64,000 nt of DNA from Octopus vulgaris (GCA_951406725.2 OX597817.1:108252001-108316000), one strand, 5' to 3'. Positions 7,815 to 54,981 are shown, counted from the stretch's first letter. A program made the numbers and translations. The notes: generated by a model not told the origin, from the letters alone.

Positions 7815-8048
7815 ACCGGAGTAAACACATAAATGTGAAACAAGGTGGAAAAACGAGTACTCAAATACCAGTGGTAGAGTAATATGCTTTATTTAAAGCA
7901 GCAGAAAATTCAACAAAACCTGTTACTCTGAGTTTCACGTTTACGTTTGTCGGACAGTTTTTTCTAGCAAAAACTGTCCGACGAACGGGAATGTGAAACT
8001 CAGAGTAACAGGTTTTATTGAATTTTCTGCTGCTTTAAATAAAGTATA
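7815..8048. mobile_element. Non-autonomous Penelope-type inverted element with two hammerhead arms
   Basis: ~80-bp inverted arms (7883-7962 / 7969-8048) plus a ~70-nt one-sided extension, flanked by (TA)n. Confidence 0.7.
7974..8011 (+). ncRNA. Minimal type I hammerhead ribozyme motif (C4 core variant)
   Basis: CTGT-CCGACGA-AC(GGGAAT)GT-GAAA-CTCAGAGT-A-ACAG: stem I CTGT/ACAG, stem III ACTC/GAGT, GUA site. Confidence 0.65.
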
Positions 8049-8175
8049 TATATATATATATATATGTGTGTGTTGTTACAGAGAAAGGGAGAATGCCACT
8101 TATATTTGAACACTATACAAATATTCCTTTAAAAAAACTTTTCTTCTAATTTTTCTAAATTTAATTATTTAATCG

Positions 8176-8218
8176 TTACAGTTGAAAAGGTCTCAAAATG
8201 ACCGAAACCGGTACTGAA
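8176..8218 (+). ncRNA. Minimal type I hammerhead ribozyme motif (U3:A8 variant)
   Basis: TTACAG-TTGAAAA-GGTC(TCAAAAT)GACC-GAAA-CCGGT-A-CTGAA; palindromic stem III ACCGGT. Confidence 0.7.
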
Positions 8219-8435
8219 ATGTTCTTTATAAACACTAAGCTGTTGAACTATATATTCTTTTTGCAGGATATAAACAAATATTGATACTACCCAAGCAGTA
8301 GCAATATGAAGACAATTTAAGATTCAAATTAATGAAGTGCAATAATAATGTTTAGCTCTTCAAAGCTGTGAGTAGTGAAATGCAGAATTAGGTCAGCTGA
8401 TCATGAGAATCAAATATTGATTGCTAAAAACTGCT

Positions 8436-8873
8436 GGTGGTATGGTTTATTTCCCTTGGGTTGTTTAAATAATATATTTGTAATATGTAGTAGATAAGAG
8501 AATCCATTAGATGGGCACTATTATCGATTTTTTTCAACAATCTAAGTATGTCACAAGGTTTTCCAGACATGAGTTCTACTCACGTGTCAAATAAGGTAAA
8601 AAAAAAAGAGATATTGTCTGCAAAAATTAGAAATAGAACACACAAAAAATCAATATCCAAAGTAACTGAACATAAACAATGAAATGGGCTGTTTCCCATG
8701 AGTGTTTAAAAAAAATATTATGCAGGTGGTATGGGTTATTTCCCTTGGGTGTTTAAAAAATTGGTTATATGAGGTAGATACAAAGGTCCCTTCTAGGGGC
8801 TGTATTATTGATATTCTTCAACAATCTAAGTATGTCATGAGGTTTCCAGACATGAGTTCTATTCACATGTCAA
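8436..8873. repeat. Diverged local direct duplication (~150 bp, ~290 bp apart)
   Basis: ggtggtatgg.ttatttcccttggg ... caacaatctaagtatgtca...tccagacatgagttcta occurs twice. Confidence 0.8.
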
Positions 8874-9376
8874 GTTTCATCAAAATCAATAAAACCATGT
8901 AGGAGGAGTTAGATAACAATGTCACAAACAAACACACACCGATTTTCCACATATGTAGTAGATAGATGCAGGCATGGGTAAGTGATTTTAGAAGTTTGTC
9001 TCACACCACTTGGATTCAAGTTCAATTCCATTGAATGGGACTTTGGATAAAAGTCTTTTGTTACATGCTTGAGTTGACTAGTGCCCCGTGAGTGATATTT
9101 GGCAGCTAGAAACTGTATGGAAGCCTGGTATGTGTGTATATGTGTCTTTGTCTTCATATTGCTACTGCTTGGGCAGTATCAATATTTGTTTATGTCCTGC
9201 AAAGAGAATATGTAGTTCAACAGCTCAGTGTGTGAAGACAAGTAACGTGAAGTGCTCAACCTGAAAACAACTAAGTTGGTATCAAGCAGAGCATCTGGCC
9301 ACATGCTACAGTCCCAAGAGATCTTGTCTAACCAATGTCAGCATGAATTGGACAAGTCTTGATGATGATGATGATA

Positions 9377-9410
<34 letters not shown>

Positions 9411-9459
9411 CATACATGTATATATCTATATATAAATGCACACACAAACATGCACACAC

Positions 9460-13338: not shown

Positions 13339-13420
<82 letters not shown>

Positions 13421-15217
13421 GGTTCACACATATACACACAGAGCCCTAAAATTCCTGGTATCCAGTGACTTAATTAAATTTGTACAATGTGCTGTAGAAA
13501 TATCCATTTATATATTATAATTGTATGTAAACAATTTCACAGACAGAGTACAGTGTTTTTAATATTCTTTGAAAAAAATAATGTATTTTCAACTTCATAC
13601 TTTTCTAATATAACTTTTACCCCAATTGCAAATATGAAAATTCAGAGTATTTTTATTTGTCAATCATGACAAAAGTTTTCTCTTCCACACAACTGGTGGG
13701 GAGTATTTTGTGATCATAAATTCAAGGTCAGTTTTATATATTTACTAGCATTTTACCAATGCTTCTAAATGATACCTTTTAAAGGTACAATTATTTGGTA
13801 ACTTTGGCAATTTATTTTATTATTTTGAAATCTTTTTGAAAATATTGCCCATAAGATAACACAGTTTTTCTCTATGTAATGACAAAGAAACAATAGTGAT
13901 TAACTATTGTTGAATTATATTTATATTGTGCATCTAGTTTGGTTTATATTGAATCAATATATCAAGATGACAAATTTCTTAGATTATTATTTTTATCTGG
14001 TTACCTGTCTGTTCTTGCTGGTAAAATTTAAAAGTGATTTTTGAATGATTTTTCTTTACATGTTTTAAGAACTAGAAATTAAACTGTGATATTTAATACT
14101 TAAGTGTGAATTTCTTTAAATAAATGCTTTGAAAATGTATATGTTTAAATGCTCTTCATTAATTATTTTAGCAAAGATTTACTTTTCATTTTTTCAAATA
14201 AAATTTCATGAAATGTATTTATAATAATTATGAGGTTGCAGACATGTTGATGCATATAATATCTAGCTGAAAAAACAAAAATGAGAAAACCCTTCGCTTC
14301 TATCATTTTCCTAAGTCAAAACTCATAGTCTCTAAAAGAATCAAATGAACCAACTAGCCTGTTACTTTAATCACTTAATCTGAAGATATGAAACTTGAAG
14401 CGCAACAGAGAGAGAGAGAGAGAGAGAGGTGGGGATTGTTCATAAGCAGTCCCATAGTTGTTAAATGTCTCACTGTCTTAAATAAAGGCTATGTTGAACA
14501 ATATAATTCATGATATACAATAAATGGGATTATCACCATTGGAGTGCCTTTCACCATAGTTTTGTTTGACTGCATCTGATCTGGGACAGAACAACAATAT
14601 AGTTTACTTAGTGTCAAGAAGGCAAGGGCCTATGCATGGTCGTTTGGCCTGCTAGATACAGTAGCCAAATTTCCTTCAAATCACATCCTACTATCTTAAA
14701 TCTGAGAAGTACACATTGGAAAATACAGTCCTATATATGTATACAGATAAAAATTATGTTTGTATACTTGACAGAGTGTATTGTTCAGAAATCAAGGTGT
14801 CTCTCCAGGTTCAGCTGCTCCTTCATCACATCAGGACGATGCAGCTCTGGTACTATGGACATGATTACAATGCTGCTGTAGAGAAATTGCAAGATGGATT
14901 CTTCAAGCTGAGCCATCTAGTGAGAAACCTAGTGGATGACCAAGAGTATATCCATAGTGTCAGTTGGTCAGGCTTAGGAATCCATCCAGAAAGTCTCATG
15001 AAGGTTGCTTCTAAAAGGACCCTATGAAGGAGGTGCCAAGGACTTTACTACCCCTTATGAGTTTTCCAGGAATACTGGGCAGAGAAGATGGCTGACTGGC
15101 TATATATATATATTGATAGAAATGGCAAGACAACAAAAGAATGAAAGAGACCTCAATATTATGCAATTAGAGGAATTTATCTGTAAATATAATATGTGAC
15201 AATTATTCGGTAGCCAT

Positions 15218-15278
15218 GATAAAACTCCGAGTTCCAGATGTCTGGGCAGAAACCCATGCCAGCATCTCTTCAGTTATC
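15218..15278 (-). ncRNA. Hammerhead motif, degenerate copy (GAAA to GGAA)
   Basis: Reverse complement of the 16043-16105 motif. Confidence 0.5.
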
Positions 15279-15795
15279 GGGCCATCAAAAAAATGCTATG
15301 AAAATGACCGTTAAACAAAGGGAAATTACTGTGTGATTGACCGTTATTAAGACAAAAGAGCTATTAGAATGACCGCTAAGTAAGGGGAGGAGGAGTAAAG
15401 GTAAGGGAGTAAAAATATTCATAGTAATCGCATAAGTGTGCATGTCCATACATACACATGTGCGCCCACACACCCACGTACATGTGCCTATATATATACT
15501 CATACGTGTGTGTGTGTGCGTATATAGACATGTATGGGTATGTGTGTATATTAGATGTATGTGTGCATGCATGCGAGTATGTGCATATATAGATGTTTTA
15601 CTCTCGCTTATTTTTTACACTTTTTTCACACATTTTTCTATATTTTGCTTTTAGCCCGGATTTTCTTGTGCATGTGCCTATATAGATGTGTGTATGAACC
15701 TTTTTTGTGCATGTGCGTGTATGCAGGTATGTATATATATTTTTGGGCGAATGTGTGGGTGTGCATGTGTGTGTTTTTAGTGAGGGTGGATGAGT

Positions 15796-15826
<31 letters not shown>

Positions 15827-16042
15827 ATATATACATATATATATATAGGCGTATGTATGTGGGCATGTGGGTGCACATGTGTATGTATGGACATGCGCGC
15901 TTACACGATTACTACGAACATTTTTACTCCCTCCTCTTACTTAACGGTCATCCTAATAGCTCTTTTGTCTTAATAATGGTCAATCACACAGTAATTTCCC
16001 TTTGTTTTAATGGGCATTTTCATAGCATTTTTTTCGATGGCC

Positions 16043-16105
16043 TGATAACTGAAGAGATGCTGGCATGGGTTTCTGCCCCGGCATCTGAAACTCAGAGTTT
16101 TATCA
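16043..16105 (+). ncRNA. Type I hammerhead ribozyme motif
   Basis: TGATAA-CTGAAGA-GATGCTGG...CCGGCATC-T-GAAA-CTCAGAGT-T-TTATCA; 6-bp stem I, canonical CUGAAGA. Confidence 0.75.
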
Positions 16106-16123
16106 TGGCTACCAAATAATTGT

Positions 16124-16154
<31 letters not shown>

Positions 16155-16158
16155 AGGA

Positions 16159-16196
<38 letters not shown>

Positions 16197-22916: not shown

Positions 22917-23267
22917 CAGGGTTTCCCAAAAGTCACTGATGGGTTTCAGTTTTTAATAACTTCCTTAACTTTACAAATAAATGCATGAAATTTTGATTCA
23001 ATATAAAGGACATAATGGAAATTAATATGCACAAGTCAAATTTTGCAACACAACTGCATCACGTATGAAAAATGACATTGCTTAAATGGCAGCCATTTGT
23101 GGCTTTGCATGCCTGTGCTCTTTCGAAAACTTGCACAATAACATCCTCAAGGGTTTCAGACCCCACTTCTCTGATTTCTCTATTGATGTTCTCCTTCATG
23201 CATTTATTTGTAAAGTTAAGGAAGTTATTAAAAATTAAAAGCCATCAGTGATTTTTGGGACACCCTG
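22917..23267 (-). mobile_element. Tc1/mariner deletion derivative (rosa/DD41D-like C-terminus)
   Basis: ~70-bp TIRs CAGGGTTTCCCAAAAGTCACTGATGG... ; minus strand reads RAQACKATNGCHLSNVIFHT*. Confidence 0.8.
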
Positions 23268-23369
23268 AATATATATATGTACATAGCTGTCTAAGAAACC
23301 ATAAGTCAGAAAAAATATGCACTCATTTATTTGTCAGTACAGTAGGTATATTAATTGAAGCGTAGAATA

Positions 23370-23605
23370 TTATATATCCATTATTGCCAACCGTACCAAT
23401 TGGTTTCACGCTAGGGGTTCAACAGAGTGTGATGTAACAGCCCAATTATGTAACCCTGCACTCTTCAGAGATTGCAGTCACCATATTTCCTTTCATAACT
23501 ACTACCTCTGAAAAGTGCAGGGTTACATAATCAGACTGTTACCTAACACTCCATTGAACCCCTAGTATGAAATTGATTGGTAATATCAACCTTAATAGAT
23601 ATATA
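23370..23605. mobile_element. Palindromic MITE/fold-back
   Basis: ctaggggttcaa...ttatgtaaccctgcact.ttcagag versus ctctgaaaagtgcagggttacataa...ttgaacccctag. Confidence 0.75.
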
Positions 23606-24559
23606 ATACAATGTACACCTCGGTTTATATTTGTAGGTGCAGTATAGCAAAATGGTTGGGAGGGTTACTTTTCTAACACTACATCTAGTTCAGTGCCACT
23701 GCATAGCATCTTGGGTAAATGACCTTCCCCACTCAAACTACCATATCATCTTTGCTCATGCTCAATGCCTGCTCCCTCTCTCTCTCTCTCCCTCACAACT
23801 GCAGTGTGCCAAAAACAATCCATCCCTTTCCTCCCTCTGTCAACTGTATCATCATTACTATCCTGCTACAAGCATCTGTCTGCATTCTCCAATTCATACA
23901 CCTCCAACTTCTATATCCATCACTCTCTCCACCCATCCTTCAATCTTTCTCAGTCTTTACAAATGTTTCCTACCTTACTTTTTCCCCATTTCCCCTATCT
24001 CTTCCCCCTACCATACATTCTTGCAAACCCTCACTCATTCCTAGCCTCTCTGTTCCCACTCACTACTATGTATGTATGTGTAGGTGCAATATAGCCTAAC
24101 TGTACACCTTTATCTTTATGTTGTGGGCAGTGTTATGGTAGTTCCATAGATGCTTCTTGAGGGACCCAAAAGTTCTGTCGCTCAGATTGTTTTCGCCTCT
24201 CAACTTCAAGGTCAGAAGAATTAGTACAAGTCATTGAACTACTGAGATAGGTAAAAGCCTTGGTGTACTTTAGGGGCTCTCTCAATCTATTAGGACATCT
24301 TGGTAGAGCAACTCAGTTTTCTTGAGATTAGACATGTCTGCTGCTCAAGAAAACTGGTCCACAATGTGTTGCATTGTCTTCAATATTGCTAGTTATGAGT
24401 GCTGAGTCTTGTGTGTAGGGCAGTTTCCTGGCACACACATCCCTGATTTTGATGGAAGCATGAAGACAGGCAAGTGCTAGGAAGCCCTTTGCCTTGTGTA
24501 CCAGGGGTACAGTGAAGATGCTGACAACAGGACATTGGATAACCAACACACATATGTAT

Positions 24560-24865: not shown

Positions 24866-24875
24866 CTGACACATA

Positions 24876-26193: not shown

Positions 26194-26375
26194 GAGGCGC
26201 AATGGCCCAGTGGTTAGGGCAGCGAACTCATGGTCGTAAGAACGCGGTTTCAATTCCCAGACATCGTGAGTGTTTATTGAGCAAAAATACCTAAGCTCCA
26301 CGAGGCTCTGGTGGTTGGGTGGTGGTGAACTCCGCTGTACCCTTTCACCACAACTTTCTCTCACTCTTTCTTCCT
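26194..26375 (+). mobile_element. tRNA-headed SINE fragment
   Basis: A box TGGCCCAGTGG and B-box-like GGTTTCAATTCC. Confidence 0.6.
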
Positions 26376-30089: not shown

Positions 30090-30502
30090 TATAAAACATC
30101 TGGATCGTGAATTGGTAGCGTTAGTAGAGCGTCGGATAAATTACTACAGCAATTCAAATCCCACAGACGTCATTTCTTCATTTCATCCTTCTTAGTCATT
30201 TATATAAAATTGACACATTAAATAAAGCTCCAACATCGGCACTCCTTTAGAAACGCACCTCTCCAAGACAATGCAATTAAAAATAAAAGTTATGGAAATG
30301 GAAAATATATACAAAGTAAATAACGTATGCAAAAAATTAGAAAGATTCATCCATTTTAAAATATTTTATGCGAAAAAATAAAACAAACGGAAAACGGCCA
30401 CTCGTGAATATAAACAAACGTCAGACGATACAAGGGGCGGAAAATTGCTTTTACCAGTAAGGTAGCCACTAAAACTTTTTTATTTTCTCTCTGCTTATTT
30501 CT

Positions 30503-30548
30503 GAGTTCCTTTCTGTTGAAGAGCCTAGGCTCGAAACATAAACGACTC
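30503..30548 (+). ncRNA. Degenerate hammerhead-like motif
   Basis: CTGTTGA-A-GAGCCTAGGCTC-GAAAC-ATA; A6 and stem III altered. Confidence 0.35.
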
Positions 30549-30639
30549 TCACTTCCTGAGCGTTAAGCTAATTCATCTGTTTGTTGTTTACACACCCGTC
30601 TTCGTCTTTTTTTTTTTTTTTTTTTTTGTAAATTCCAAC

Positions 30640-30937
30640 TATTATTAATGATACGTGGGGCCCGACAATATCGTCTGCGAATCGTAAGAAGACCGTTTCA
30701 CAATCTGTTTCTTGAAATTCAGTTTATAACCAATACGTACTATTATGTCGAATTTTGAGCCTGAACGTGGAATTTTTAATTCTATGACTTTATTTAGTCT
30801 CGGAAGAGATTTGGGAACAATAGAAAAGACCAATAACTAACCCTAACCCTAGCGAGTATGTACAGTAAAAAAATCTGATTAAAAATAATCAAGAATTTGC
30901 AAACGATATTGTCGGGCTCCTCGTATCATTAATAATA
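30640..30937. mobile_element. MITE
   Basis: ~45-bp TIR TATTATTAATGATACGTGGGGCCCGACAATATCGT / ACGATATTGTCGGGCTCCTCGTATCATTAATAATA. Confidence 0.8.
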
Positions 30938-31544
30938 CTTGACTGGTAAAAGTAAATTACCGCCCCTTGTATCGTCCGACATGGTTTTCCGTTTGTTTTA
31001 TTTTTTGGTATAAAATATTTAAAAATGGATGAATTTTTCTAATTTTTTGCATACATCATTTATTTTGTATATAGTTTCCATTTTCATTACATTTTCTGTG
31101 AGAGGTGCGTTTCTAAAGGAGCTCCCCGACATCAAGCAACTGACTTGGTAGACACCTACAAGATTATCCACCATCTTTCCAATAACAACTTTAGGCACCT
31201 TTTTGAATTCCATACGTTTAACATCCACGGAGGTGCTAACAAAATCAAAAAACAGCACAGCATCCATGACTTTCGGAGATATCTTTTTACGCTCAGAATT
31301 GCTGAAGCATAGCATTATCTAATCGTATCGGTTGTTAGCTGTCGGGACAACATCCTTCAAGACGTCCGTGTTTCCTGAAATTCGCCAGCACTACACCGGA
31401 TGTTCTTTTTAAAGATATTTTTGTGACTCATTCACTGTTCGTATTTTTTTGTGCATTATTTGTGTACTGTGCATACACTTTTGGCTACCTTTTCTGATGA
31501 GTTATAGTGCATTTGAACACTGTATAATTAAGTTCATTATTATT

Positions 31545-32812: not shown

Positions 32813-33029
32813 GTGTATATAGCGGCCATAATATAAGGGTCAGTAAAAACAAGTGTATTGAAATAATTATAGAAGGTTAAAAACACATTGACTAGATATT
32901 TTACACATATTTAAATATATCTAATATCTATCTTTCGTGAAAATTTCAAGTGAATGGAATAAATATTTCGTAATTTATGAAGAAATAAACAAACAATCTT
33001 CCAAATTGCTGCGGCTAAAAGTTAAGGGT

Positions 33030-33496
33030 AACTTAGAAAAACTGGACTCCTAACCAAGGTTCTGTATTTAAGAGATGAGGAATTATGTACATAAGAAGCC
33101 CACGCTCTTAACCACTACGCCAAATGCCCGTGGGGAATTATGGAGTGAATTTTAGGGCTTATTAATCTAATATTTTTCTATCCTTCCTTAATACCGGTTC
33201 CCATATGCTGCTCATATCTGCACTCGGTCTGCTTAGGAGGTTGTTGTGACACGAGGAGATATTGGCCACGGGCATTTGGCTTAGTGGTTAAGAGCGCGGG
33301 CTACTAACCCCAAGATTCCGAGTTCGATTCCAAGCAGTAACAACAACAACAACATCGAAGAATACCTTAGGAATGAGAACCCAGGTTCGAAATTTCGCTA
33401 AGACACCCGAAGAAGGCTGGAGGGTATATCAGCCGAAACGTTGTGTTAACAACAAACAAGATGAGGACAAATATCCGTCGAATGTAAATAATGTAC
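33030..33496 (+). mobile_element. tRNA-like-headed element with 3' hammerhead and partial inverted copy
   Basis: A box 33277-33287, B box 33320-33331, hammerhead 33402-33447, inverted head 33097-33133. Confidence 0.65.
33402..33447 (+). ncRNA. Minimal type I hammerhead motif
   Basis: GACAC-CCGAAGA-A-GGCTG(10 nt)CAGCC-GAAAC-GT-T-GTGTT; palindromic AACGTT stem III. Confidence 0.7.
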
Positions 33497-33664
33497 TAAC
33501 CAAGTTATTTGTTGTTTAGAAGATTGTCAATGGGTTAACAGTTACTTCTTGTGATATTACATTATTGGAACATTCAACTGTCGACATGGCGGTATGTGAG
33601 AGACGACCGGTGTCCTGTGATGAAAAACAAAGAATTGTGTGCCCTTCAAAGAGAATAAGTGAAA

Positions 33665-35693: not shown

Positions 35694-35758
<65 letters not shown>

Positions 35759-36544: not shown

Positions 36545-39120
36545 GCACTTTACAGCAGTTTACTAAGAAAAGAAATACCCAGCAAATATAAACAGGCACC
36601 CAGCAACACTTTAGATGAAATAAATAAAAAGAGAATGGTTTTTAAGAGCAGAGAAAAAAAAATTGGATATAGATAGTTACTACTCAACTATTAATCCAAT
36701 AGTAAGTGTTAAATAAAGCTCTCATTTTCGCAATGAAAAAAGCTAGTTTATCTAGAGAAGACGTGGACATAATCCTATCAGCTCGTCAAACTGTTATTAG
36801 TTACGATAACAAAATATGGACGAGATCTGATAGGCCAAATTCTTTTGATATAACAATGGGATCAAGCGATTCGGCTGAGGTTTCGGATATCTTGGAATCT
36901 ACCTATTAACCGAAGTCAAATCAGAATTCCCACAGATAACAGGAGGTCTGTAAAAAACTGTACTAAAGTTGAGATCGAAAGATACAGAAAAAAACTCCGA
37001 AATATTTTTAGACGTTTCGGCCTTTCTATTACTATAGACGGTAATTATCCTAAGGTAAACTCTTTAGATGCAACTTTCAATTTGGAAAATGGCATGTACG
37101 AACCATACCTAATGAATGCTTAAGATATATAAATGTTAATTCCAACCATCCACCTTCCATAATCAAAAGTATAATTAAGAATGTAGCTACCAGAATATTA
37201 CGTTTATCAGCATCAGAAGAAATATTCAAACAACATGCACAATACTACAATGAAGTGTTTGCTAGGGCCGGATATAAAGAGAGAATCAAGTTTGTAAATA
37301 ACAAAACATCAAATAACAATAACATAAACACCAATAAGATAGAATACGCAGTTAAGTCGAATTGCATCAACTAAGGAATAACAAGAAAAAAGGGAAAACC
37401 TGAGGAACAAAGGAAAGATTGGAGGAAAATGGATATATACCCAAAAGGAAAGAAAAAATACAATCACACATAATCACTACACACAAAAATATGGAAGAAA
37501 CCAAACAAAACGTACAAAAATTCCGAAGTCCTATGGTATAATCCAATTTTTAGACTCCAAATATCGTCTAAGATTGGTAAGCAATTCATTGCAGCATTAA
37601 ATAGATGCTTTCCTAAAACACATAAATACTACCGTTTATTCAACAAACAGTGAAAATATCGTATGCAACATCTTACAACATGGAGGACTACATACATAAA
37701 TACAACAACCAGAAATTGAATACACAAACAACGTCTGTTGGTAGAGAGCAAACAAATCAAAACTACACAGAATTTAACACCAATAACCAAAATACACAAC
37801 AGATAAACTGCAAAATCTCAGATGGCGTAAAAGACGGTGACAATATAGTTGAAATATATCATACAAAAAGATCCAACAAAACAGATTACCGATTAAACAA
37901 AGCCTCGGATACTAGAAATCAAACGGAACATCATGAAAACAGAATCAAAAAGCCGCCAGATAAACATAAGAATAATAAGAATACGATTAACTGCACATGC
38001 TGCGAAAATCCGTATGTCCGCTCCTGAACCAATGTGCTCAAAAAACATAGTATATAAATGCATAATCTACACATCTAAACATAATTACACATAAATTACG
38101 TGTACATAGGTGTCACTGAAAACCAATTTAAAGTCCGTTATCGAAACCACATCTCGTCATTCCGAAAAATAAATAGACGGCACACGACCTCGCTGGCAGA
38201 CCTCATATGGGGACTGAAAGAATCAAAAATTAAATTCCAAATAGAATGGTAAAAAAAAACAAAACAAAAAAAAAACGCACATCCATGTACTTCACTATCC
38301 GGAAAATGTCACCTTTGCCTTGCAGAAGCACTGAGTATTCTACTGAGTAATAAAAAATCTAGTGAATAAAGATGATGAGAACATTCCAAGATGTAACCAC
38401 CGTACCAAATATGCTTTTCCAGATGAAACAGTGTATAAATTATAATAATAATTATTATTCTACCTCGCTAAACCCATTTTTACCGCCTTCACGTATGTAT
38501 AGGAGTGTGTATTTATGATGGAGCGTTCAGCAATATAACTATGTACATGGAAATGAGTAAATAAATATATAAGCGTCTATAGATGTGAATGTGTTTATTG
38601 ATATGTAGGTGAGTATATGTATGCGTGTGTGCATCAGAATATATGTACATATATCTTATATATATGCATGTACGTGTCTGCGTGTGAGTGTATGTTTGTT
38701 TGTGTGTGTATGTGTGTGTGTTTGTGTGTGTATGTATGGAAACACTCAGTGATATATGGTATATCGGTGTGTAAGTGATTGCATATGTATGAGCTAATGC
38801 ATAAATGTATTTTGCGTAATGGTAGTTTGGTATGTGTAGAATAATATATCGAAACTGAATAAATAAACAGACAACGTGTACATTGCGGCTCATATCGAAC
38901 GTGATAACACACTCACACCGAGCGATTTGAAACCGTCAGCGTTTGTTAGTTTTAAAGAAGTCATGTAGCATGGAAATCTAGATTTACTAACGGAAACAGC
39001 AAATGAGTATCGCCTGAGGAGATACATATAGATCTTCTTACACAGGTAAATCGTTACATAATTTTAACTTAAATTTAAATCCTGTATGTACGAAGATATG
39101 TATGTATCGAAACTCTTCCT
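36545..39120 (+). mobile_element. Penelope-like retroelement (Naiad-type RT + GIY-YIG endonuclease), disrupted
   Basis: FDITMGSSDSAEV; YINVNSNHPPSIIK; VKISY; CTC..CPLLNQC..NIVYKC; YIGVTENQFKVRYRNHISSF; GKCHLCLAE; RCNH; frameshifts. Confidence 0.9.
39005..39115 (+). ncRNA. Hammerhead core with an 88-nt stem II in the PLE 3' region
   Basis: CTGAGGA (39014)-GATACATA...TATGTATC-GAAAC (39109); internal pairs ATCTTC/GAAGAT and CAGG/CCTG. Confidence 0.6.
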
Positions 39121-39163
39121 TTTGACTCTTTTACTTTATATATATATGCATATATTGGGTCAT

Positions 39164-39201
<38 letters not shown>

Positions 39202-39203
39202 TA

Positions 39204-40470
39204 TATTGAGTCATCCCATAAATAATGGGTTTTTTTTCAATTGCATGAACTAAAAGTCGGAGGGGGACGCGATAAACTACCTGCATCAACTTGTTATAAA
39301 AGCAGGTTGTAATTTTATCTGTGGTTTTATTCTTAGTGCAAGTTTTGGAGAGTGCAGTTCGATTTTAACAGTTATTTTTTCAAAGCTATAATGGAAGCGA
39401 CAAAGGAGCATATTCGGCATATTTTACTTTATGAGTTCAATAAAGGCAACAACGCAACGGAAAGTGCGAGGAATATTAATGCAGTATATGGGGATCGGAC
39501 AATAAGCGTAAGCCGGTGTCAAAGGTGGTTCCAGAAATTCCGAGCTGGAAACTACAACCTTAAAGACGAGCCTCGTCCTGGAAGATCTGTAGAACTCGAC
39601 GAGGAACAAAATTCCATCGTAACTGTTGAGGAACTAGCAGAGAGGTTTGGATTTGGTCATTCAGCCATTCATCGACACCGGTGTGCCATCGGAAAAGTCA
39701 GCAAATTGGGGCAATAGGTTCCTCACAAACTTTCCGAGTCTAATCGCGCGCAGAAAGTGAATGTGTTCTCTTCTTTGCTGTCACGTCTCCCGAATGAACC
39801 TTTTTTTGACCGAATAGTGACTGGTGACGAGAAATGGGGTTTCTATAAAAATGTCAAGCGCCGAAGACTGTGGGTAGGGAAAGGAGAAACACTGGCACCA
39901 CAGGATAAAGAAGGTCTTCACCCACATAAGGTGTTATCTGTTTGGTGGGATATGAAAGGTTTAGTCCGCTTTGAACTTTTAAACCCAAACCAAACGATAA
40001 GAAAGGGGATCTACGGCGAGTAGCTTGAGCGACTTAAGTCAGCGCTAGGAGAAAAAATACCATCTTTGGTTTCAAGACGAAAGGTGTTCTTCCACTAGGA
40101 TAATGCTCGGCCACATACAGCGAGGATGACATTCCAAAAGCTGGAGTAGTTTGAATGGGAAACGATACTTCACCCAACATATTCGCTGGACATTGCCCTA
40201 TCTGATTATCATTTATTCCGCAGTCTTCAAAATGATTTGGACGGCAATAATATGAATTCTGTAGACGAGGTCAGAACAGTACTGGCGGAGTATTTTTCAT
40301 CACGGACAACTGAAAATTTGGAAGAGGGGCCTTGCAAGTCTACCAGATAGATGGAAGAGCATTATAGAAAATAAAGGAGAGTATATTTTAAATTAAAAGA
40401 GAACTTTATCTTAATTTTGAAAAATAAAAGTAGTATAAATAAATCGCATTATCTATAGGATGACCCAATA
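39204..40470 (+). mobile_element. Full-length mariner (DD34D) with inactivated transposase (~39391-40396)
   Basis: TIRs TATTG(A/G)GTCATCC.ATA.ATAATG in TA context; motifs *VPHKL, IVTGDEKW, DNARPH, YSLDIALSDYHLF; multiple stops. Confidence 0.95.
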
Positions 40471-40478
40471 TATATATA

Positions 40479-40564
40479 AGAGATGGTGTTGTGGATTTCC
40501 AACTCGGCATCTGAAACTCAGAGTTTTATCTTTGCTATTGAATAATTGTCACATATTATTTTAC

Positions 40565-40570
<6 letters not shown>
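40479..40570 (+). mobile_element. Truncated copy of the 16043 hammerhead element
   Basis: ggcatctgaaactcagagttttatc...aataattgtcacatat; the 5' core is missing. Confidence 0.65.
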
Positions 40571-40614
<44 letters not shown>

Positions 40615-41646: not shown

Positions 41647-41973
41647 TCAAGTATTTTGTCTAAGGTACACTTGCTGAATTCTTGTTCTCCGATGTCCTCT
41701 ATAGGTACCCCATTTGGCAGGCATGTGTGAAAAGCTGACGTCGGATTACCACGAACTTGTCACGAACAGAGAATCTGGGCTACTGACGTTTGTTTGAATC
41801 TAGTAATAGTGGTTGTGATGCAGCAGCTAGTAGCTGTAACTACATAGGAAAATGTTTATTGCTTACACTTGTTGTTGCTCTTTGCTAGAAATATAACTTC
41901 GTCTCGAAGAATTCTTCGTACAAGGTCAGACAGCTGAAAGCAACATGGCTTTAGGTGGGTTATTCTGTTTGAA
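41647..41973 (-). pseudogene. Inverted partial copy of the PHPT1-like gene (5' UTR + frameshifted first codons)
   Basis: Matches 2102-2420 with few mismatches; a 26-nt deletion after MPAK gives a 25-aa ORF 41724-41647. Confidence 0.9.
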
Positions 41974-42094
41974 CTGGAGAAAAAGTGAGTGAGTGAGCGA
42001 GTAAGAAAGAAAGAGAGAGAGAGAGAGAGAGACAGATACGTAGATAGATAGATAGAGAGAGAGAAAACATTGAACGAATATGTACAAATAGATG

Positions 42095-45110: not shown

Positions 45111-45218
45111 TACAGGCATCCAGCAACAGGACCTCCGTAATGCCATGATGGACCGTGAAGTCTGGCGTAGCATGGTAAATTCCATTGTCTCGACCACGGT
45201 CGAACAATGATGATGATG
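45111..45218 (+). mobile_element. RTE-type LINE 3' end
   Basis: TGIQQQDLRNAMMDREVWRSMV...* followed by a (TGA)n tail. Confidence 0.7.
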
Positions 45219-45356
45219 AAATACTCTGTAACATAAGACAGTAACTTGTTCCCTGGTGATCAGTGGTAGTGAAACATCCAATTTCAGTTGAAACACCCAA
45301 TGCAGAACTCCAAAGGAACCACAATGATGAAACGTACGTGGGAACTAATAATCCTT

Positions 45357-45558
45357 TTTACTAAAGGCACACGGTCTGAAATTTGGTAGGAGGGGAATAG
45401 TCAATTACATCAATCCCAGTACGCAACTGGCACTTATTTCATCGACTCTGAAAGAATGAAAGGCAAAGTCGACTTCGGTGGAATTTGAATTTAGAACGTA
45501 CGAAATGTAGCAAAGTATTTTGTCCTGCGTGCTCACGATTCTACCAGCTCGCTGCCTT
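45357..45558 (-). mobile_element. Nin-domain-type SINE
   Basis: Family sequence. Confidence 0.75.
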
Positions 45559-47757: not shown

Positions 47758-48447
47758 CCCATGAGAGTTCCGGATCCCAGTAATGAACTCATTTGCATAC
47801 AGCCAATCAGAGCTCACCTTGACCTTGTTGTCAAGTTAACAAAGGTTGGCATTCAAAGTGGCGACCTCCGATTGCCATGCGAATCTTGTGTTCTGCTTTC
47901 ATTCAGATGCCAATATCATCGGTACTGAACACAAACGCTGGTTAGCTGTAGGTTTGAATTACTATATCAATCAAAGATAATGTTTTGGACGAATATGAAA
48001 GTACGGAAACTGCTTGAAGGTTTTATGAATACGCATTGATTCACTGATACGAATTATGGACGTGTGTGTATTGTTAATGTATCTTTAGCTATCCAAGTCC
48101 CACATGTGCATTTTCCTGTGGTCTTCAGCGAAAAACGAATTTTATTTATTTTATGAGCTTTTGTACAAAAAAAAAGTCACGAAAATGTGCGAGTACTATT
48201 AGTAGTAATTATAGATTAATTTATTATAATTATTGAATTTAATTCTATGTCAAACCTACAGCTAACCAGCGTATGTGTTTGGTATCGATGATATTGGCAG
48301 AATGAGAGCAGAACACAAGATTCGCATGGCGATCGGAGGTCGCCATTTTGAATGCCAACCTTTGTTAACTTGACAACAAGGTCAAGGTGAGCTCTGACTG
48401 GCTGTATGCAAATGAATTCATAAAATAAGGTCCGGAACTCTCGCGGG
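47758..48447. mobile_element. Long-TIR fold-back element
   Basis: ~200-bp arms 47758-47957 / 48250-48447; related termini at 61043-61542. Confidence 0.85.
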
Positions 48448-50324
48448 AAAAAAAAAAAAATTCGCTGCCGGGTGAAATACTTAGCGGCGTTTTGTCTTTC
48501 TTCGTGTTCTGAGTTCAAATTCCAACGAGGTCGACTTTGCTTTTCATTCTTTAAGAGTCGATAAAATAAGTACCAGTTGAGCACTGAGGTCGATGTAATC
48601 GACTTAGCTGGCCTTGTGCTCAAATTTGAAACCAATATGCAGCTCTTGATGATAAGAGTGAATTATTCACGCTGATGCTACTGTAGTGATACCATTTTGG
48701 AAATCTTCAGCACGCATGCGCAGAGTTTGGATTTTTCCGGGAAGCCTGCTGGAAGTTCCCTCATGCGTATGTGCAGAAAACTAGCAGCAGCAAAATTTCC
48801 CGCGTATCGACCTCTCTCGAATGCTGACAGTCTAACAGGACGGTCGTGTTGCAGCAGCTCTCTCAAACTGCCACATCGTGGCTACACTATGCTTGAACGG
48901 ACAGGATTTGGCTCACTCCACTTGACTACTGCGATGAGCTCCTAGGCTGCCGATTCGCCCTGAAGAAGAATGTATATATTGCGAATCCAGAAATAAAAAT
49001 ATTTATGCTGTTGAAGATATTCGGAAGTCTTGGTTTTTCCTTCGATTAATAATTTAATGTAAGCGATGAGTGCTGCACCCCGCCAGTGTTATAGACTTTT
49101 CATCCTGTTACACTACTTTAAAAGTATTGTCTGGGTGTGTTAGAAAGGTATTCATAACAGAGCCAAAACACTGTCTTCAAATTAATATTGAAATAATCTT
49201 ACCCAGGAAATATTTTTGAAATATCAAACATCAGAGCAAAGAAGTATAAAAATAGAAACCATGAAAATTCTGGAATATTCAAAGTGTACAGAATTAACGA
49301 GATTGTTTACATTAATATGTTTTTATTTGTCAGAGGAAAAGTAACAAGTCACAAACGCCTTAAGTTCTTTTGTTGTGTGATAGTTTAATTAATGTTTGGT
49401 TTAGAGATGGAACGAAAAAAAAAGAAAAAGTTACTAGAAGGTAAATTAAATGAGATTCAGTAGAGAAGAAATTGAGCAAATGTTTAACATGAAATCTGGA
49501 AGGAGAGTAATAATGAGGCTGACAAAAATAGATTGAAATATAACGAAACAACTTTTTAGGAAGGGACAAGACAAAAGAGAGTCACCGTAAAACAAGTTAA
49601 TTTCTTTGGTAGCACTGATTGTAGATCTATAATCACTTGTTGAAGCGGCCTATTGCCTAATAAAACGTCAATAATTAAATCTTATAATTGCATTGTATCA
49701 TGTTCACATCTTTGAAATTCTCTTGAATCCCGCTGAAATCCTATTTGGTTAAGCAGCCCATTTCGTTTTGTTAAAATGTTCGTGCAGATTCTCTGAACGA
49801 AGCGTTCGTTGATACTTTTGCAAGGAACATGCTTTATTTTTTTGTTCCTAATTCAAAATTAACTACAATGATGCATACTAAGAATGAAAATTATTATGCA
49901 TTCAGTTCTCAAGGAAGTTCTCGCTGATATCAAATTCCTTTATGCTTAAAAACAATCAAGTTTCTGATGTTTGGCAATGAGACAAAGCTTTTAAAAGAGG
50001 AAATAATAGAAATCTTTAGAGAGTTTAGAGATAATATACTCGCATATAAAAGTGAATATACAGGCTAGTACCAAATAGGGACAACAGAAAAAGCTTTTGC
50101 TTTCGTTCGTGGAATCTTTAAGTCGAATTGTAGCTTGTTAATACCTAATTACTGTCGATACATAGAGTTTCAACTGAAATTTTCTATAGCATATATACAA
50201 TAATGCACTATTGTATTGTCAAAATTTTCGTTAATTTAGAGTCTAGCATTTAATTTTAGCCAAAGAAATAAACTCCCGACTGTCGAGCTCAGAATGACCC
50301 AAACTCAAATCAAGTATCTTAGAC

Positions 50325-51781
50325 TAAAGGTTCTCAACCCATTTTGGCTAAAGGCCCCATTTTGACCATTGCTCCCCCCTCCCGAAAATATATTTATTTT
50401 TCAATATACTACCTATTTTGATATCAGCAGATAATGATTAAAAAATAAAGGACGTTGTTTTACATATGCGTTTGTACGCAGTTGGGAGTACAAATGTACA
50501 AACTGAAATGCCCCCCCCCCAAAAAAAAAACAAGCAAACGAAATAATGAATTGAAAGTTTGGTAATTGCGTTTATTTTCACCATGCGACACTTATGAGAT
50601 CAACGTGTAGTTTATCGAAAGAGTGCTCTTTCGTATAAGTAAATGCCTATGAAATCATTTCAAACCTTTCCGATTTCCCTTATCAAAACAGCTAGAACTT
50701 GTGCAACAATCTGACATATAAGTTATTGAAACCCGGGAAGAGCATTTTTTATGCGCAAGAAAGAGTGTATTTGACTGAAATTCTTGAAATACATATGCAC
50801 TTCATATGAGTAGCCAATTGTGGAGGATGGTATTCACTGTACTGGATCTAGTTAGTTTGAGTTACAAAATCAGCCCCCTTTTAAAATTACGTCAAAATCT
50901 GAAAATTTGTCATATTAAACATTCATTTCTTATTCAGGATCTAGTTTGTTTCATTCACAAAATCTGCATTTTTTTAAAAGGAAGTAAAAAATCTGACAAT
51001 TGGTTATATTGATGCAGTTTTCCACGCTTATTCTTACGAAGCCATGAACTTCTGGAGAAAAAAATTGACGCACACAATTTTTTTTAAATTCGTGGTTTTA
51101 AAATACGGACAGTTCGAATCTACCATTCATTTCTCTTTATAATTTCCAAATAATTTTTTAAATACTTCAAAATCAAAATTGCGTAAATGTGTGCTAGAAA
51201 CAGTAGTTAAAAATTAAGCAAATAGATGTATATACACGTGGGTGTATACGTATTGTTTTAATTATATACAGACACATATTATACACGCACATACACACAT
51301 AAAAAACTGGCATATCGTCGGTTACGACAATCACAGATATCCAAAATTTCTTCACCACTCTTCCAACTTCATTTTTCCTCTTAAACAGAAGGCTCTCGCC
51401 TACTTAGGTTATATGTCGTACCATTGCACGGCTGTCTGTCTGTTAATATTGCTGATGGACATGCAGCATGTCACTGACATTTCACATATAAAGTCCAGGA
51501 TTATGTGAAAAAGTGTGAAGACCATCAATTGACTTTTTTTTTTCCATAAAAGTATAAAAAAATTATTTGGAAATTATAAAGAGAAACGAATGGTAGATTC
51601 GGACTGTCTATATTTTAAAACCACGAATTAAAAAAGAGGAAAATTAGCGGAGAAGAGGAGGAGAGATTTTTTTGTTGTTGCATAATCATATCAATTCCAT
51701 TATGCAGAAGACAGAATCGAAAAAAATTTGTAAAAATACGAAAGTTATGAGGGGTTTTAGCACGTGCTTACATCATAATTC

Positions 51782-51835
<54 letters not shown>

Positions 51836-52864
51836 CACGCGCGTCTTTGCTAGTGTCTGTTTTTCCTTTAGTTTTTGTTTACTTATACACATCAACAGAT
51901 GAGCCAATGCGGTACTCTGTGTGGTTGTTCAATTTGCTAGAAATAAGAGCCAAATCTTCCTCATGCTATGCTCTTGTTTGTATTAAGGAAAGGGAAAATG
52001 TCTACTCTTCTCCAGCATTACGTTTAAAATTAATATTTTTGATTTTGTTCGGCTCTATGAATCTATTTTTTTAAAAATGCTTCTGTCCATTGCTTGATAC
52101 TGGAAATTGGGATATCCTCACCAAAAATAGAGAAATTCTTACTTAACAAGAAATATAGAAAGAGAAAGAAAAGGTTCTGTCTTCCAAAGCCAAAAGATGT
52201 GTTTTTAGCTGGGGTGTAATTTTATAATTGAAACATATTCAAAATTTAAATTTTAGAACATAAAACTTACCACGTTATCTGGTGTGTAGCCGCAGTTCAA
52301 ATGGGTACAAAACCTAAAACAAATGTGTGTTGTGTGGTTGTGTCTTTAATAGCCAGGGGGTCAATTTAAGTTCAATCGCAGAAAGGAATTCAAAACGGCA
52401 ACACACGCAATCATATACATACATACATACACAAGTACATACCTATCAGCTACTCCCAAAAGCCAGTTTGATCCAAAATTCTGACCACCATTCTTTATAT
52501 ATTTGCACACACACATTCAGCTTTTCGCTTGTATTCATTACTTTTTTCTTTTAATCGTCTGTCACTATTAATCTATTTTTAGTTTTTGTTTTGGGGGTTT
52601 TCACTTTTGCGATACCAGTTACACATGGTACCAGGAATTTGCTTGGTGTCGTCATAGTGGAAAATGCTTTTTAAGTTTTTGAAAGTTTGAAACAAAATGA
52701 CACAGGTTTTTTTAAAGTGACTGTCGCAGAGATGTGAAAATATGGCTACCGCTCGTTAATTTCAAATTAATTTTCCCAAATATGAGGGTCTTCCAGCGCC
52801 CCCTCCCCCCATGCCTCCAAAATGCCCTCTTGTTGCTCCAAATGCACCCCGTTGAGAACCTTTG
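50325..52864. mobile_element. hAT (Charlie-like) non-autonomous element with nested insertions
   Basis: TIR TAAAGGTTCTCAAC / GTTGAGAACCTTTG; exact 8-bp TSD TCTTAGAC. Confidence 0.85.
51078..51636. mobile_element. Nested MITE with ~80-bp TIRs
   Basis: aattcgtggttttaaaata...ctctttataatttccaaataattttt mirrored at 51558-51636. Confidence 0.8.
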
Positions 52865-54940
52865 TCTTAGACCATAAACTAAAAATAGTGGAATTTACAT
52901 GTGAAACATTTGTGAATACATATTCTTAGAAGGATGAATAGAAAATTGGCAAGAGCCAAATGATTATTAAATGTTCTGATTAATGTCAATTATGTCACTT
53001 GTCTTACACTAATTGTCAGTTTATTTAATGCTTTATGTCTATAGAACACTTTCAAGAATTATTATGGTATTCTTCACGTTAAGTTACAATGCTGGAGCTC
53101 AATAATTTTCGCCATCCCAACTACGTGACCGCAAAGCTAATCAGTAGAGAAAGAGAAGCGGTACTCTATATAGAACGTGCAATGCAACAAGTCAGTGACT
53201 TCATATTTTGAAAGCGAATGCTTGCTAATCAGTCTGTAGAGAAGTAGGAAAAGTCATCTACGCTTTTATTCATTAGACGTTCCAACAGTTATATAAAGTT
53301 CCTCCAACAGATATGGTGCGTTTATGGTTTGATAATCTCCACTAAAATGGCAACACGATGTTGAAAGGTTAATAAATGTTCCTTGATTCATACAAGTTTA
53401 GAGAAATGGCAAACTGCGAAGAATATAGACTTCAGTGCACTAGCAATTTTATTTACTGTTAGATGACTGTGAAAGTATACTGTAAAGAAGTGGTAGAGTA
53501 CGCTGTGCAAGAGACGTACTCCGGTGGGAACGCTGTCCAAAGCGAAAAGATATAAAGTCATTCTACACTTTCTTTTGTAAATATCATATAATGATAATAG
53601 CGGGACTGAGTTAGTCCCATTGCTGCTGGTCGTAGGAGAAATAAAGAATTTGCTAATCCAACCTGGAATACGGTATTAGCGGTAAACAATTTTGAAAGGG
53701 ATGTACGGTATGAAATTTACTAGCACATTAGATAAACAGAGAAAGTTGGCATCGCAACAGGTTAAAAATGAAGTTCAAATATAGTTGTCCTTAGACACGA
53801 TGTAAGTAAAGAGACGATTTGTTTGTGTGTATGTGTGTGTGCGTTTACGTGTATGCATGTGTGGAAAGAGAGGGAGAGAGAAAAAGAGAGAGGAGGGGAG
53901 TGAAGGAGAGAGAGATATGAAATAGGTAGGCAAGCAATAGACAGATAGAGCTCTTATACGCATAAAAAAAAACTTAAGAGAGAGGAAAAAGCTATTTCTT
54001 TATTAGTCTAATTGTCTTCTTTCCTTCTATCTTTATTATTGTTTCTGTTTCACTGTCTCCATCTAATTACATCTCTCGCATTTGAGTCTCTACTACTCGT
54101 TTCTACGAGTAAACTTTCTCACCTAGGGCATCTATATTTCCGTTTATTAAACAGGGAAAATACTGTGTGCACAATTCATAGACAATTTTATTAAAAGAGT
54201 CATGACGAGACAACATGAACTGTGACAATATAATAATAATGAAGGAAATTGTTGCATACAGTGCTCAGGTGCACTTTGTGACTGTGGAACAGTCCTAACC
54301 AGTCGCCCCCAGGTCTGCTAGTTATTGTATTTCTATTGTTGGAATGATCCTAGAAATGACAACGAATGCGTTAAATAAGTTAAAGAATTGATATGAACAC
54401 GAATTATAATGATTTTGTCCCTTCGCATAAATGCAAAACCAACATGCATACATACATACATAAAAAAATATATATATAGTGAGCTTTTATGTATTCACAC
54501 GTCGTTGATTCTATATTGCTTATACTTTTTCTTTTTATTTATACGTGTGTGTGAAAGACATGTACTAAGGATAGACATAGAATTAAACATTTATTGTATA
54601 TATTTGCAGACGCAATTTGTACCCCCAACAATCCGACAAGAGTGCGAAATATGAAGCGAAACAAAATCGCAGTTGACAATGAGAGTTAGCTACCTTTATA
54701 TTGATCTTTTCCATCGAAGTCAAATAGTATCAGCATTTTGCCAACAAATGAATATTACGGATAATTTATTGTAAAGTGGAAACTAATTAAGTTTACTAAG
54801 TTATATGACGCAACTACTAAACTAATCACTCTAGTTTTTTTGTATATCAATGTGAGGCTTTTAACTATATAAATATATACATATATATATTGAAAAAAAG
54901 TCAAGATAGAAAATGCTAAATTAATTTTATAAAAAAACAT

Positions 54941-54981
54941 TTCAGTACCGGTTTCAGTTATTGAGACTTTTTCAACTGTAA
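54941..54981 (-). ncRNA. Second U3:A8 hammerhead motif (same family as 8176)
   Basis: TTACAG-TTGAAAA-AGT(CTCAATA)ACT-GAAA-CCGGT-A-CTGAA; flank 54925-55070 homologous to 8090-8235. Confidence 0.7.

Follow-up and report, generated by a model that had tools for sequence, protein, structure and literature searches.

Hammerhead-Like Sites in the Window

The window, a 64,000-nucleotide stretch of Octopus vulgaris DNA (GCA_951406725.2 OX597817.1:108252001-108316000), contains a decayed coding Penelope-like element (PLE) and a series of short units with hammerhead-like motifs, referred to here as families A to D and F, together with site E in the coding element and a further listed site at 48960. The window was scanned with our own type I hammerhead descriptor, which was written after the sites were known and may therefore favour the listed sites. 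Six of the 11 listed sites passed, all of them in families A to D, and the six best of the 20 type I matches had their cores at 16049+, 33407+, 7978+, 7953-, 8182+ and 54975-. Five sites in the window reached a score of at least 21, whereas 12 local dinucleotide shuffles gave a mean of 0.92 such sites (maximum 3). There were 4 occurrences of the helix III motif GAAACTCNGAGT in the window, against 0.04 expected, and a helix II of at least 8 bp closed by an exact core was found twice (16049 and 39014); in 200 shuffles the mean was 0.04, and the count never reached 2. The core CUGANGA-GAAA-UH is exact in C (16049), canonical by majority in D and present as a U3-A8 variant in B. In families A to D, helices I and II are paired and helix III is palindromic with little or no loop; these features are weak in F, and absent from E (read as type I) and from 48960. 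The original prediction of minimal type I hammerheads with a palindromic helix III of the PLE kind was borne out. The list of cores stood in part: besides the six passing sites, two of the five that failed as type I (15218, 40479, 30513, 39014 and 48960) are decayed copies of family C, while 30513 is weak and 48960 unsupported.

We considered whether the motifs might be dead relics or chance matches, without selection on cleavage. Core changes are present in 5 of the 6 passing window sites, a clear margin over shuffles in folding is seen for C and E only, and the sole Rfam match, HH9 at 8168-8233 (20.4 bits, E 2.1), lies under the Rfam threshold; in addition, 48960 is a chance match and 30513 scores at background. 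The shuffle controls, however, argue against this explanation, as do D, whose majority core is canonical, and the compensatory changes described below for B and C, and we regard it as very improbable. Minimum free energy (MFE) dimer folds contained no clean dimeric hammerhead for most units, MFE cofolding being not informative here. Five window motifs were absent from the supplement of Craig et al., where wrapped lines make such a miss weak. A pattern of the A/C type gave 14 matches in viral contigs, whose helices I and II were unconvincing on inspection, and these were taken as chance.

Families A, B, C and F

Family A is formed by two arms in opposite orientation. The left arm (7815..7960, minus strand) adjoins (TA)n and carries a hammerhead at 7920-7957, the core of which shows U4C and G8A, and a 67-nt tail (7815-7881) that is missing from the right arm. 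The right arm (7970..8044, plus strand) ends in (TA)n and carries a type I hammerhead at 7974-8011, with its core at 7978, a palindromic helix III in the style of the Hydra clade and a predicted cut after 8007. U4C is common to both arms.

Family B is represented by two copies. Copy 1 (8079..8232, plus strand) has a hammerhead at 8174-8221, with a U3-A8 pair in its core at 8182, a 6-nt palindromic helix III and a predicted cut after 8213; its 3' end is broken by another inverted-repeat element (8232-9231). Copy 2 (54889..55078, minus strand, lower boundary approximate) is 87% identical to copy 1, has the same U3-A8 core at 54975, shows A-U in place of G-C at 10.1-11.1 and has its 3' end at (TA)n. 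The U3-A8 pair has been reported for Schistosoma Cercyon PLEs and also in natural ribozymes. The compensatory U3-A8 core in both copies is a sign of selection on the fold.

Three copies of family C were found. The left arm (15110..15498, minus strand) adjoins (TA)n and has a hammerhead at 15217-15279 in which A13 is changed, and a tail of approximately 80 nt with an approximate boundary; the listed site 15218 is this inverted arm. The centre and right arm (15499..16126, plus strand) consist of TG-rich, UTR-like DNA followed by a hammerhead at 16043-16105, with an exact core at 16049, one extra U before G12 and a predicted cut after 16099, and end in (TA)n. The third copy (40478..40572, plus strand) lies between (TA)n runs and is truncated inside the 5' core, at site 40479. 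In the distal part of helix II, three compensatory pairs distinguish the third copy from the other two. The alteration of three helix II pairs on both sides is likewise a sign of selection on the fold, in a covariation signal that comes from 3 sequences only and was matched by 29 of 500 shuffles.

Family F (30459..30638, plus strand) is a 180-bp insertion in one arm of a palindromic element, of which the other arm provides the empty site. It contains a decayed minimal hammerhead-like motif (core 30513, A6U) that fails the descriptor; positions 15.2-16.2 are mismatched, and its helix I is weak. The site at 48960, which has no helix II and no descriptor match, was rejected as a hammerhead.

The similarity among families A to F is confined to the helix III motif in A and C, microsatellite-like stretches in C and E, and one 23-nt antisense match between D and F. 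Since they share almost no similarity, and since 39014 belongs to the coding element, we count four good families (A to D) and a weak one (F), where at least five unrelated families had been proposed.

Hydra-Clade PLE and Site E

The coding element comprises a decayed ORF at 36715..38430 (plus strand, 5' boundary provisional), with many stops and frameshifts, and a TG-rich 3' UTR at 38431..39137 (plus strand) that ends at (TA)n. The ORF reads in the order RT (approximately 36721-37647), linker and C-terminal GIY-YIG (approximately 38038-38430), and shows collinear matches to P0001 (E 2e-21) and to the metagenome locus L015 (tblastx E 8e-29). The GIY-YIG match by Pfam is weak (E 0.007, below the cut-off). 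CxC, CxLC and CxH are readable across frameshifts, with the linker spacing broken, and DKT and RWK fall outside the readable part; no CCHH motif was seen in this decayed, partly readable ORF. The element had been taken for a Naiad, an identity which did not hold up, as RT precedes EN in the manner of the Hydra clade. Naiads are reported to lack canonical hammerheads. No PLE proteins were found in the viral contigs, and one of three metagenome PLE loci (L015) reached the 3' UTR.

Site E (39005-39116) lies within the 3' UTR of this element and is therefore a unit that continues upstream into an RT-EN ORF. It has an exact core at 39014, GAAA at 39109 and, between them, a long 88-nt helix II domain (z -4.2), and is without the 3' helix III and helix I of type I. 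As a type III motif, it was the best of 74 matches, with a 4-bp helix III in register and 4 nt of helix I unpaired, in one copy only. The arrangement would suit a metazoan PLE with a circularly permuted type III hammerhead, a reading that we consider improbable. A second hammerhead candidate at 38946-38999 was rejected, its core being out of register and its fold having a z of -0.7.

Family D and Its Copies Elsewhere

Family D was the only family compared with copies elsewhere, in assembled public contigs from 4 runs and three organisms, in which its abundance is very high. On the left of the window copy, an inverted 34-nt 3' tail (33059..33092, minus strand), defined from the joint tables of the 4 runs, is fused directly to the left arm, which contains the first part of a tRNA-like head (33093..33133, minus strand; A box at 33122) and high-copy DNA upstream of the head with an open frame (33134..33248, minus strand). 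In other copies the tail runs on directly from 33490-33495, and it is supported by opposite-strand joints in all 4 runs. The hammerhead and 3' part of the right arm (33402..33495, plus strand) contain a minimal hammerhead at 33402-33447 and reach the common right-arm end. This hammerhead has its core at 33407, an extra A after A9, a loopless palindromic helix III and a predicted cut after 33442. At core position 33408, the majority letter in the public contigs is T, at 94, 94, 97 and 99%; apart from this position, the free N7 is the only core site listed as variable, and the core is canonical by majority, a further sign of selection on the fold. The exact D motif gave 0 matches in the metagenome contigs, and neither (TA)n nor a duplication is visible at the flanks of D.

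In the public contigs, many D copies include the upstream DNA and extend in conserved fashion into a stop-free frame. Four of six listed variants in this frame are synonymous third positions (p ~0.1), in a listing that leaves 21 variant rows aside; a seventh listed variant removes the first stop of the window copy, and, by our own reading, the conserved loose end adds ten further sense codons. We infer that this frame is the end of an ORF, namely the C-terminus of a PLE protein, and the peptide presumably resembles PLE C-termini. No relative of the peptide was found by word-indexed searches, by phmmer on representatives, by Pfam or in the Craig supplement, and the one match in the Atlas, at 0.76, bore no name.

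Origin of the Hammerhead Units

An inverted 5'-truncated arm with a one-sided 3' tail is found in A (67 nt), C (approximately 80 nt) and D (34 nt), and (TA)n flanks A, the second copy of B, C and the Hydra-clade element. The published PLE insertion pattern is an inverted copy with a one-sided tail of 30-40 bp, and the tails of A and C are longer than this. The helix III sequence ACTC-N-GAGT occurs in A and C and also in L015, and no link to an ORF exists in the window for A, B, C and F. The proposed link of the insertions to PLEs is thus upheld by the inverted arms with a one-sided tail. Because of this insertion pattern in A, C and D, and of the canonical core and upstream ORF-like end of D, the units are most likely 5'-truncated PLE ends. 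We therefore propose, with a probability of roughly 0.7, that they are pseudo-LTRs, the 3' terminal modules of four or more PLE families, probably inserted in 5'-truncated form by PLE RT and GIY-YIG, with ribozymes predicted to cut only as dimers. In such a process, the endonuclease would nick a TA-rich target, RT would copy from the RNA 3' end and stop early, and a second, inverted copy would be made at the same site. Helix III of a lone unit could not fold, leaving it uncut, and in a tandem precursor two units would pair and be cut. The individual copies are probably dead, and the source elements probably under selection.

Alternatively, the units could be independent non-autonomous families of a retrozyme-like kind, released by their hammerheads from tandem precursors, perhaps circularised, and mobilised by PLEs in trans. 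Animal retrozymes have been proposed to be PLE derivatives. Both arms of A begin just upstream of helix I, the start points of the two B copies lie within approximately 15 nt, and 6 of the 21 distinct non-tail joint rows listed for D have their right side at 33441-33450, beside the predicted cut. However, self-comparison of the window revealed no direct tandem of two hammerhead units, which is the arrangement that defines retrozymes, and D copies continue upstream in a conserved manner. The D joint rows are a small, support-ranked share of the tables, several of them marked 'between: not known', and position 33471 recurs three times without any feature, so clipping at private mismatches may create such clusters. 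Independent families of this kind therefore appear rather unlikely to us, and truncated PLE ends remain our preferred explanation.

tRNA-Like Head of Family D

The right arm of D starts 4 nt before position 1 of a tRNA-like head (33270..33341, plus strand), with an A box at 33277-33287 and a B box at 33322-33330, at a spacing of 45. The head has a D stem of 4/4 and a 7-nt anticodon-type loop; its other stems are decayed (anticodon 3/5, T 2/5 and acceptor 2/7), and neither ARAGORN nor Rfam called a tRNA there. A combined A and B box match was found once in D and in 0 of 100 shuffles. D has no TTTT within 260 nt, as have 357 of 2550 such windows, and the other five units have 2-6 runs; the absence of internal TTTT is compatible with Pol III, and is not proof of it. 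All nine head-to-head or head-linked joint rows, among the 15 best-supported of 657 joints, start at 33123-33137. In three DNA runs, the head had approximately 5-6 times the summed depth of the upstream DNA, depth not being copy number. The tRNA-like head was absent from the original prediction. In run X15, which is RNA by guess only, the head-to-upstream ratio was approximately 20 versus approximately 5, and this was not counted as evidence.

Because the A and B boxes precede the hammerhead and the best-supported joints start at the head, we tentatively favour, at somewhat short of even odds, the view that a PLE mobilises D as a SINE-like sub-element driven by Pol III. D would have a tRNA-derived promoter right after the ORF and an RNA of approximately 260 nt with a dimer-type hammerhead and the PLE 3' end, and would have multiplied beyond its parent, reaching very high copy numbers in several related species. 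The boxes would let RNA polymerase III make this RNA from the head in D only, a step in which we have lower confidence, and with the PLE 3' end retained, short copies would therefore arise from its own transcript as well as by truncation. D may thus be copied as a short parasite of the parent element.

The same box match, lack of TTTT, head joints and depth would also suit an independent tRNA-derived SINE with a captured PLE 3' end, in which case the upstream-bearing copies would be template-switch chimeras and the upstream frame would not belong to a parent ORF. However, the DNA upstream of the head also reaches very high abundance, and long pieces (records 7 and 9) contain the two joined together. 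Depth, moreover, is noisy (approximately 1.4 M over two copies of the head start versus 0.76 M upstream, which is not copy number) and climbs further toward the 3' end, as plain truncation predicts. We consider a SINE with a captured end unlikely, and prefer the PLE-mobilised sub-element. Octopus tRNA SINEs were reportedly described by Ohshima and Okada in 1994, and D might be one of these, or an entry in Repbase or Dfam; hammerhead variants of the kind seen here may be listed by Lunse et al. 2017. In the literature searched, no SINE-like element was found paired with a PLE instead of a LINE, nor were tRNA-type boxes found ahead of a hammerhead as in D.

Comparison with Known Systems

Truncated PLE ends with minimal hammerheads are already known, and the general idea of ribozyme-processed, PLE-related elements is in print (PMC4209133; bioRxiv 10.64898/2026.07.22.740005). 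The window supplies further examples, in which the U3-A8 core and the compensatory pairs are good signs of selection, and many short unclassified repeats here are probably PLE ends. Cervera and de la Pena 2014 (PMC4209133) reported that minimal hammerheads mostly occur singly, probably as truncated PLEs, with some in opposite-strand pairs. Like the PLE pLTR hammerheads described there, the window motifs are of type I, with a short helix I and a palindromic or absent loop 3, and are mostly single truncated copies, with an extra base after A9 (D and F), U3-A8 (B) and opposite-strand pairs (A and C). In contrast, the extra U of C lies before G12 and not after A9, helix II of E is far longer and lacks a type I completion, and D has A and B boxes, whereas the parts covered describe no tRNA-like promoter.

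The coding element resembles the Hydra clade of Craig et al. 2021 (PMC8557442) in having RT followed by C-terminal GIY-YIG, (TA)n targets and a hammerhead-like motif near the 3' end, and A and C share the ACTC-N-GAGT helix III of hammerheads of that clade. The decayed window PLE is distinct from Hydra-1_Obim, for which a different hammerhead is listed, and none of the canonical Hydra entries in the portion of File S2 covered resembles site E. The units are like animal non-LTR retrozymes, as presented in PMC7229834 and bioRxiv 10.64898/2026.07.22.740005, in being short and non-coding, with a type I hammerhead and kinship to PLE ends. Those retrozymes, however, are direct tandem repeats with at least two hammerheads and circular RNA, whereas the window units are single or head-to-head and known from DNA alone.

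Helenus and Ajax (PMC10886601) are non-autonomous retroelements whose terminal repeat likewise contains a tRNA-like sequence, but they are LTR elements with PBS, PPT and TSD rather than PLEs, and the parts covered mention a hammerhead only in a reference. A hammerhead preceded by a Pol III promoter, which in D is putative, links D with the SINE-like elements Sm-alpha and Sj-alpha of Schistosoma (reviewed in PMC6765202), which are often tandem and have an active hammerhead, no PLE mobiliser being named in the text covered. D departs from that description in its minimal motif of the dimer type, its inverted arms with a PLE tail, and an upstream stretch that looks like the end of an ORF. If transcribed from its tRNA-like head, D would be partnered, as a SINE-like element, with a PLE and not with a LINE, and its very many copies make it testable whether a PLE template RNA starts at a promoter, a ribozyme cut or a truncation. 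A PLE-mobilised SINE of this kind, if true, would offer a route to a promoter-plus-hammerhead repeat of the Sm-alpha type.

Hammerhead motifs in the window

The original prediction had placed eleven hammerhead-like sites in this AT-rich DNA (35% GC, microsatellite-rich). When a type I hammerhead descriptor, composed with the sites already known and controlled with 12 shuffles, was run on the window, the listed sites at 16049 (+), 33407 (+), 7978 (+), 7953 (-), 8182 (+) and 54975 (-) were the best six among 20 type I matches. Five sites scored at least 21, as compared with a mean of 0.92 in the shuffles, and GAAACTCNGAGT occurred four times in the window versus 0.04 expected. Two further predicted sites, 15218 and 40479, proved to be damaged copies of the family of 16043. 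The remaining three did not hold as type I hammerheads: the motif at 30513 was decayed and scored at background level, 39014 did not match this type, and 48960 lacked helix II. Rfam returned no hammerhead above threshold in the window.

The hammerhead-carrying repeats fell into families A (7815-8044), B (8079-8232 and 54889-55078), C (15110-16126 and 40478-40572), D (33059-33495) and F (30459-30638). Hardly any sequence similarity links one family to another. In place of the predicted five or more unrelated families, this gives four good ones and a weak one, F, whose motif is the decayed one at background level. About 20 copies of a SINE-like repeat of approximately 200 nt (16337-60352, both strands, 70-86% identical) gave no match to the descriptor.

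Other features were noted in the window. The region 48700-48960 is GC-rich and contains, near 48712, a palindrome resembling GCGCATGCGC, an NRF1-type site; a host promoter or first exon may lie here, and that would account for the surroundings in which the rejected site 48960 occurs. Elements with MITE-like inverted repeats lie at 8232-9231, 22917-23267, 23368-23608, 47763-48442, 51087-51629 and 61043-61541, those at 47763 and 61043 having termini in common. An intact intronless ORF of the Janus/Ocnus family (Pfam E 6.5e-33) occupies 2340-2717 (+), and its upstream 250 nt recur inverted at 99% identity, 39 kb away at 41669-41962 (-), with the first codons only, representing a recent duplication, a truncated retrocopy or an assembly artefact.

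Signs of selection

C3 pairs with G8 in the hammerhead core. Both copies of B, which are 87% identical, carry U3 and A8 instead, a swap described in natural ribozymes (PMC3088659) and in Schistosoma Penelope-like elements (PLEs; PMC4209133). Between the third copy of C and the right arm, 14 of 79 positions are changed. Six of these amount to three pairs of compensatory changes in distal helix II, a pattern reached in 29 of 500 shuffles with three sequences compared. For D, U4C is private to the window copy: in four runs of public contigs T is the majority base, with 94, 94, 97 and 99% of the depth, and N7 was the sole further variable core position among the variants listed. The hammerhead copies in the window are probably mostly dead, and their source elements were probably under selection.

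The coding element and its 3' end

A decayed ORF at about 36715-38430 matched collinearly the Hydra-type comparison protein P0001 and metagenome contig L015, with the reverse transcriptase (RT) first and the GIY-YIG endonuclease last. In the sections of Craig et al. (PMC8557442) drawn on here, Naiads are defined by an N-terminal endonuclease and are reported to lack canonical hammerheads, and the Hydra clade has a C-terminal endonuclease, hammerheads throughout and (TA)n targets. From this domain order and these definitions, the coding element is assigned on its sequence to the Hydra-type PLEs, and its original identification as a Naiad is withdrawn. The stretch rich in Asn, Thr and Gln that separates the RT thumb from the endonuclease (37650-37980) is longer than its counterpart in L015; N-rich inserts have been described in rotifer Penelopes (PMC3846280). 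In L015 itself, the PLE end (1200-1407) bears a type I hammerhead of canonical form, placed about 170 nt past the stop.

The site at 39014 lies about 25 nt from the 3' end of the Hydra element. It has an exact core closing a long helix II (z -4.2), a combination found twice in the window versus 0.04 in shuffles. The second half of its 4-bp helix III is upstream of the core, not downstream, an arrangement that would fit a candidate type III permutation, but in this single copy the 4-nt helix I does not pair. Beyond the element, a decayed mariner (39153-40466; Mos1-type HTH, E 2.8e-24) sits in (TA)n, its left terminal repeat doubled at 39153 and 39205.

The helix III of A and C, ACTC-N-GAGT, is that of published Hydra hammerheads and of L015, suggesting that both are probably 3' ends from other Hydra families.

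Insertion pattern

A and C form head-to-head arm pairs inside (TA)n, one arm exceeding the other at the 3' side by 67 nt in A and about 80 nt in C. For D, 33490-33495 was joined to 33092 on opposite strands in all four runs of public contigs, and loose ends turned random past 33059 and 33495, which identifies the inverted 33059-33092 as the 34-nt tail. These arms and tails match the published PLE pattern of an inverted pseudo-LTR with a tail (PMC3846280). F is a clean 180-bp insertion whose empty site is the other arm of its host palindrome. Self-comparison of the window gave no direct tandem of hammerhead units, the arrangement by which retrozymes are defined.

The host of F, at 30242-31121, is one of two palindromic non-coding elements (the other at 55700-56492) whose arms have short runs of telomere-like TAACCC between them. 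In each of the three DNA runs, the flanks of D (32830-33045 and 33505-33620) are also multi-copy, with a depth far below that of D. Just downstream of their hammerheads, D (33442-33464) and F (30573-30594) match each other over 23 nt in opposite orientation (91%); the sequence is of low complexity and the match possibly due to chance.

Family D: truncated end or independent unit

Truncation versus independence was examined for D alone, using public contigs aligned to 32830-33620. The DNA upstream of the D head, 33134-33248 (-), was abundant, and long contig pieces connect it to the head. Past the window copy it goes on into a loose end that is conserved (agreement 0.88 and 0.78). It forms an open reading frame in which four of six listed variants are synonymous third positions (p about 0.1) and a seventh abolishes the first stop of the window copy. 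As read here, ten further sense codons come from the loose end, and the K-x-K-E-A motif in them resembles the last helix of PLE endonucleases. The peptide had no relative in word-indexed searches, phmmer, Pfam or the Craig supplement. With moderate confidence, we regard D as the putative 3' UTR of a PLE.

About 25 nt past the end of this frame, A and B boxes (33277 and 33322) occur at tRNA spacing, a match found once in the window and never in 100 shuffles. The D stem pairs at 4/4 positions and the loops are in register, with the remaining stems decayed; ARAGORN and Rfam detected no tRNA at this head. No TTTT occurs in the 260-nt unit, which is also the case for 357 of 2550 stretches of that length. 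Another tRNA-type A box, unrelated to this one, lies at 26203 and probably heads a different SINE.

Joints were ordered by support. The best 15 of 657 comprised four tail joints, one tail-33446 link, one internal deletion and nine with left sides that all end within 33123-33137, in the surroundings of tRNA position 1 (inverted copy: 33129), with private mismatches at 33123 and 33135 that can clip alignments; none of the nine fell within 33138-33248. Among 12 rows listed from a second table, seven end at the head and one in the upstream frame. Against a start of copies at the head, depth climbs noisily towards the 3' end, as expected from plain truncation. As a weak hint, the right side begins at 33441-33450, beside the predicted cut, in 6 of 21 distinct non-tail rows listed.

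Proposed mechanism and comparison with known systems

The motifs, the insertion pattern, the Hydra ORF and the majority core, tail and head of D are directly supported. PLE endonuclease and RT would insert 3' ends, stopping early and adding an inverted second copy. Lone hammerheads would stay uncut and tandem precursors would be cut as dimers, a scheme that has been proposed, with low in vitro activity, in PMC4209133. Starting at the head, Pol III may transcribe D into a short RNA that PLE enzymes may mobilise, a joint claim to which we assign a probability of about 0.4.

Families A-C and F, like the Hydra element, add new members to kinds already known. In literature searches that reached few subscription papers and no repeat database, we found no tRNA promoter within a PLE 3' end nor, apart from Craig et al. 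and a giant squid count of 235 Rfam hits, any study of octopus hammerheads. In the O. vulgaris annotation (PMC13282606), 30 Penelope families are given as recently active and 893 SINE families as unclassified, ribozymes not being mentioned in the portion of its text consulted. In Schistosoma, SINE-like elements are known in which a promoter is followed by a hammerhead (PMC6765202), the same order as in D.
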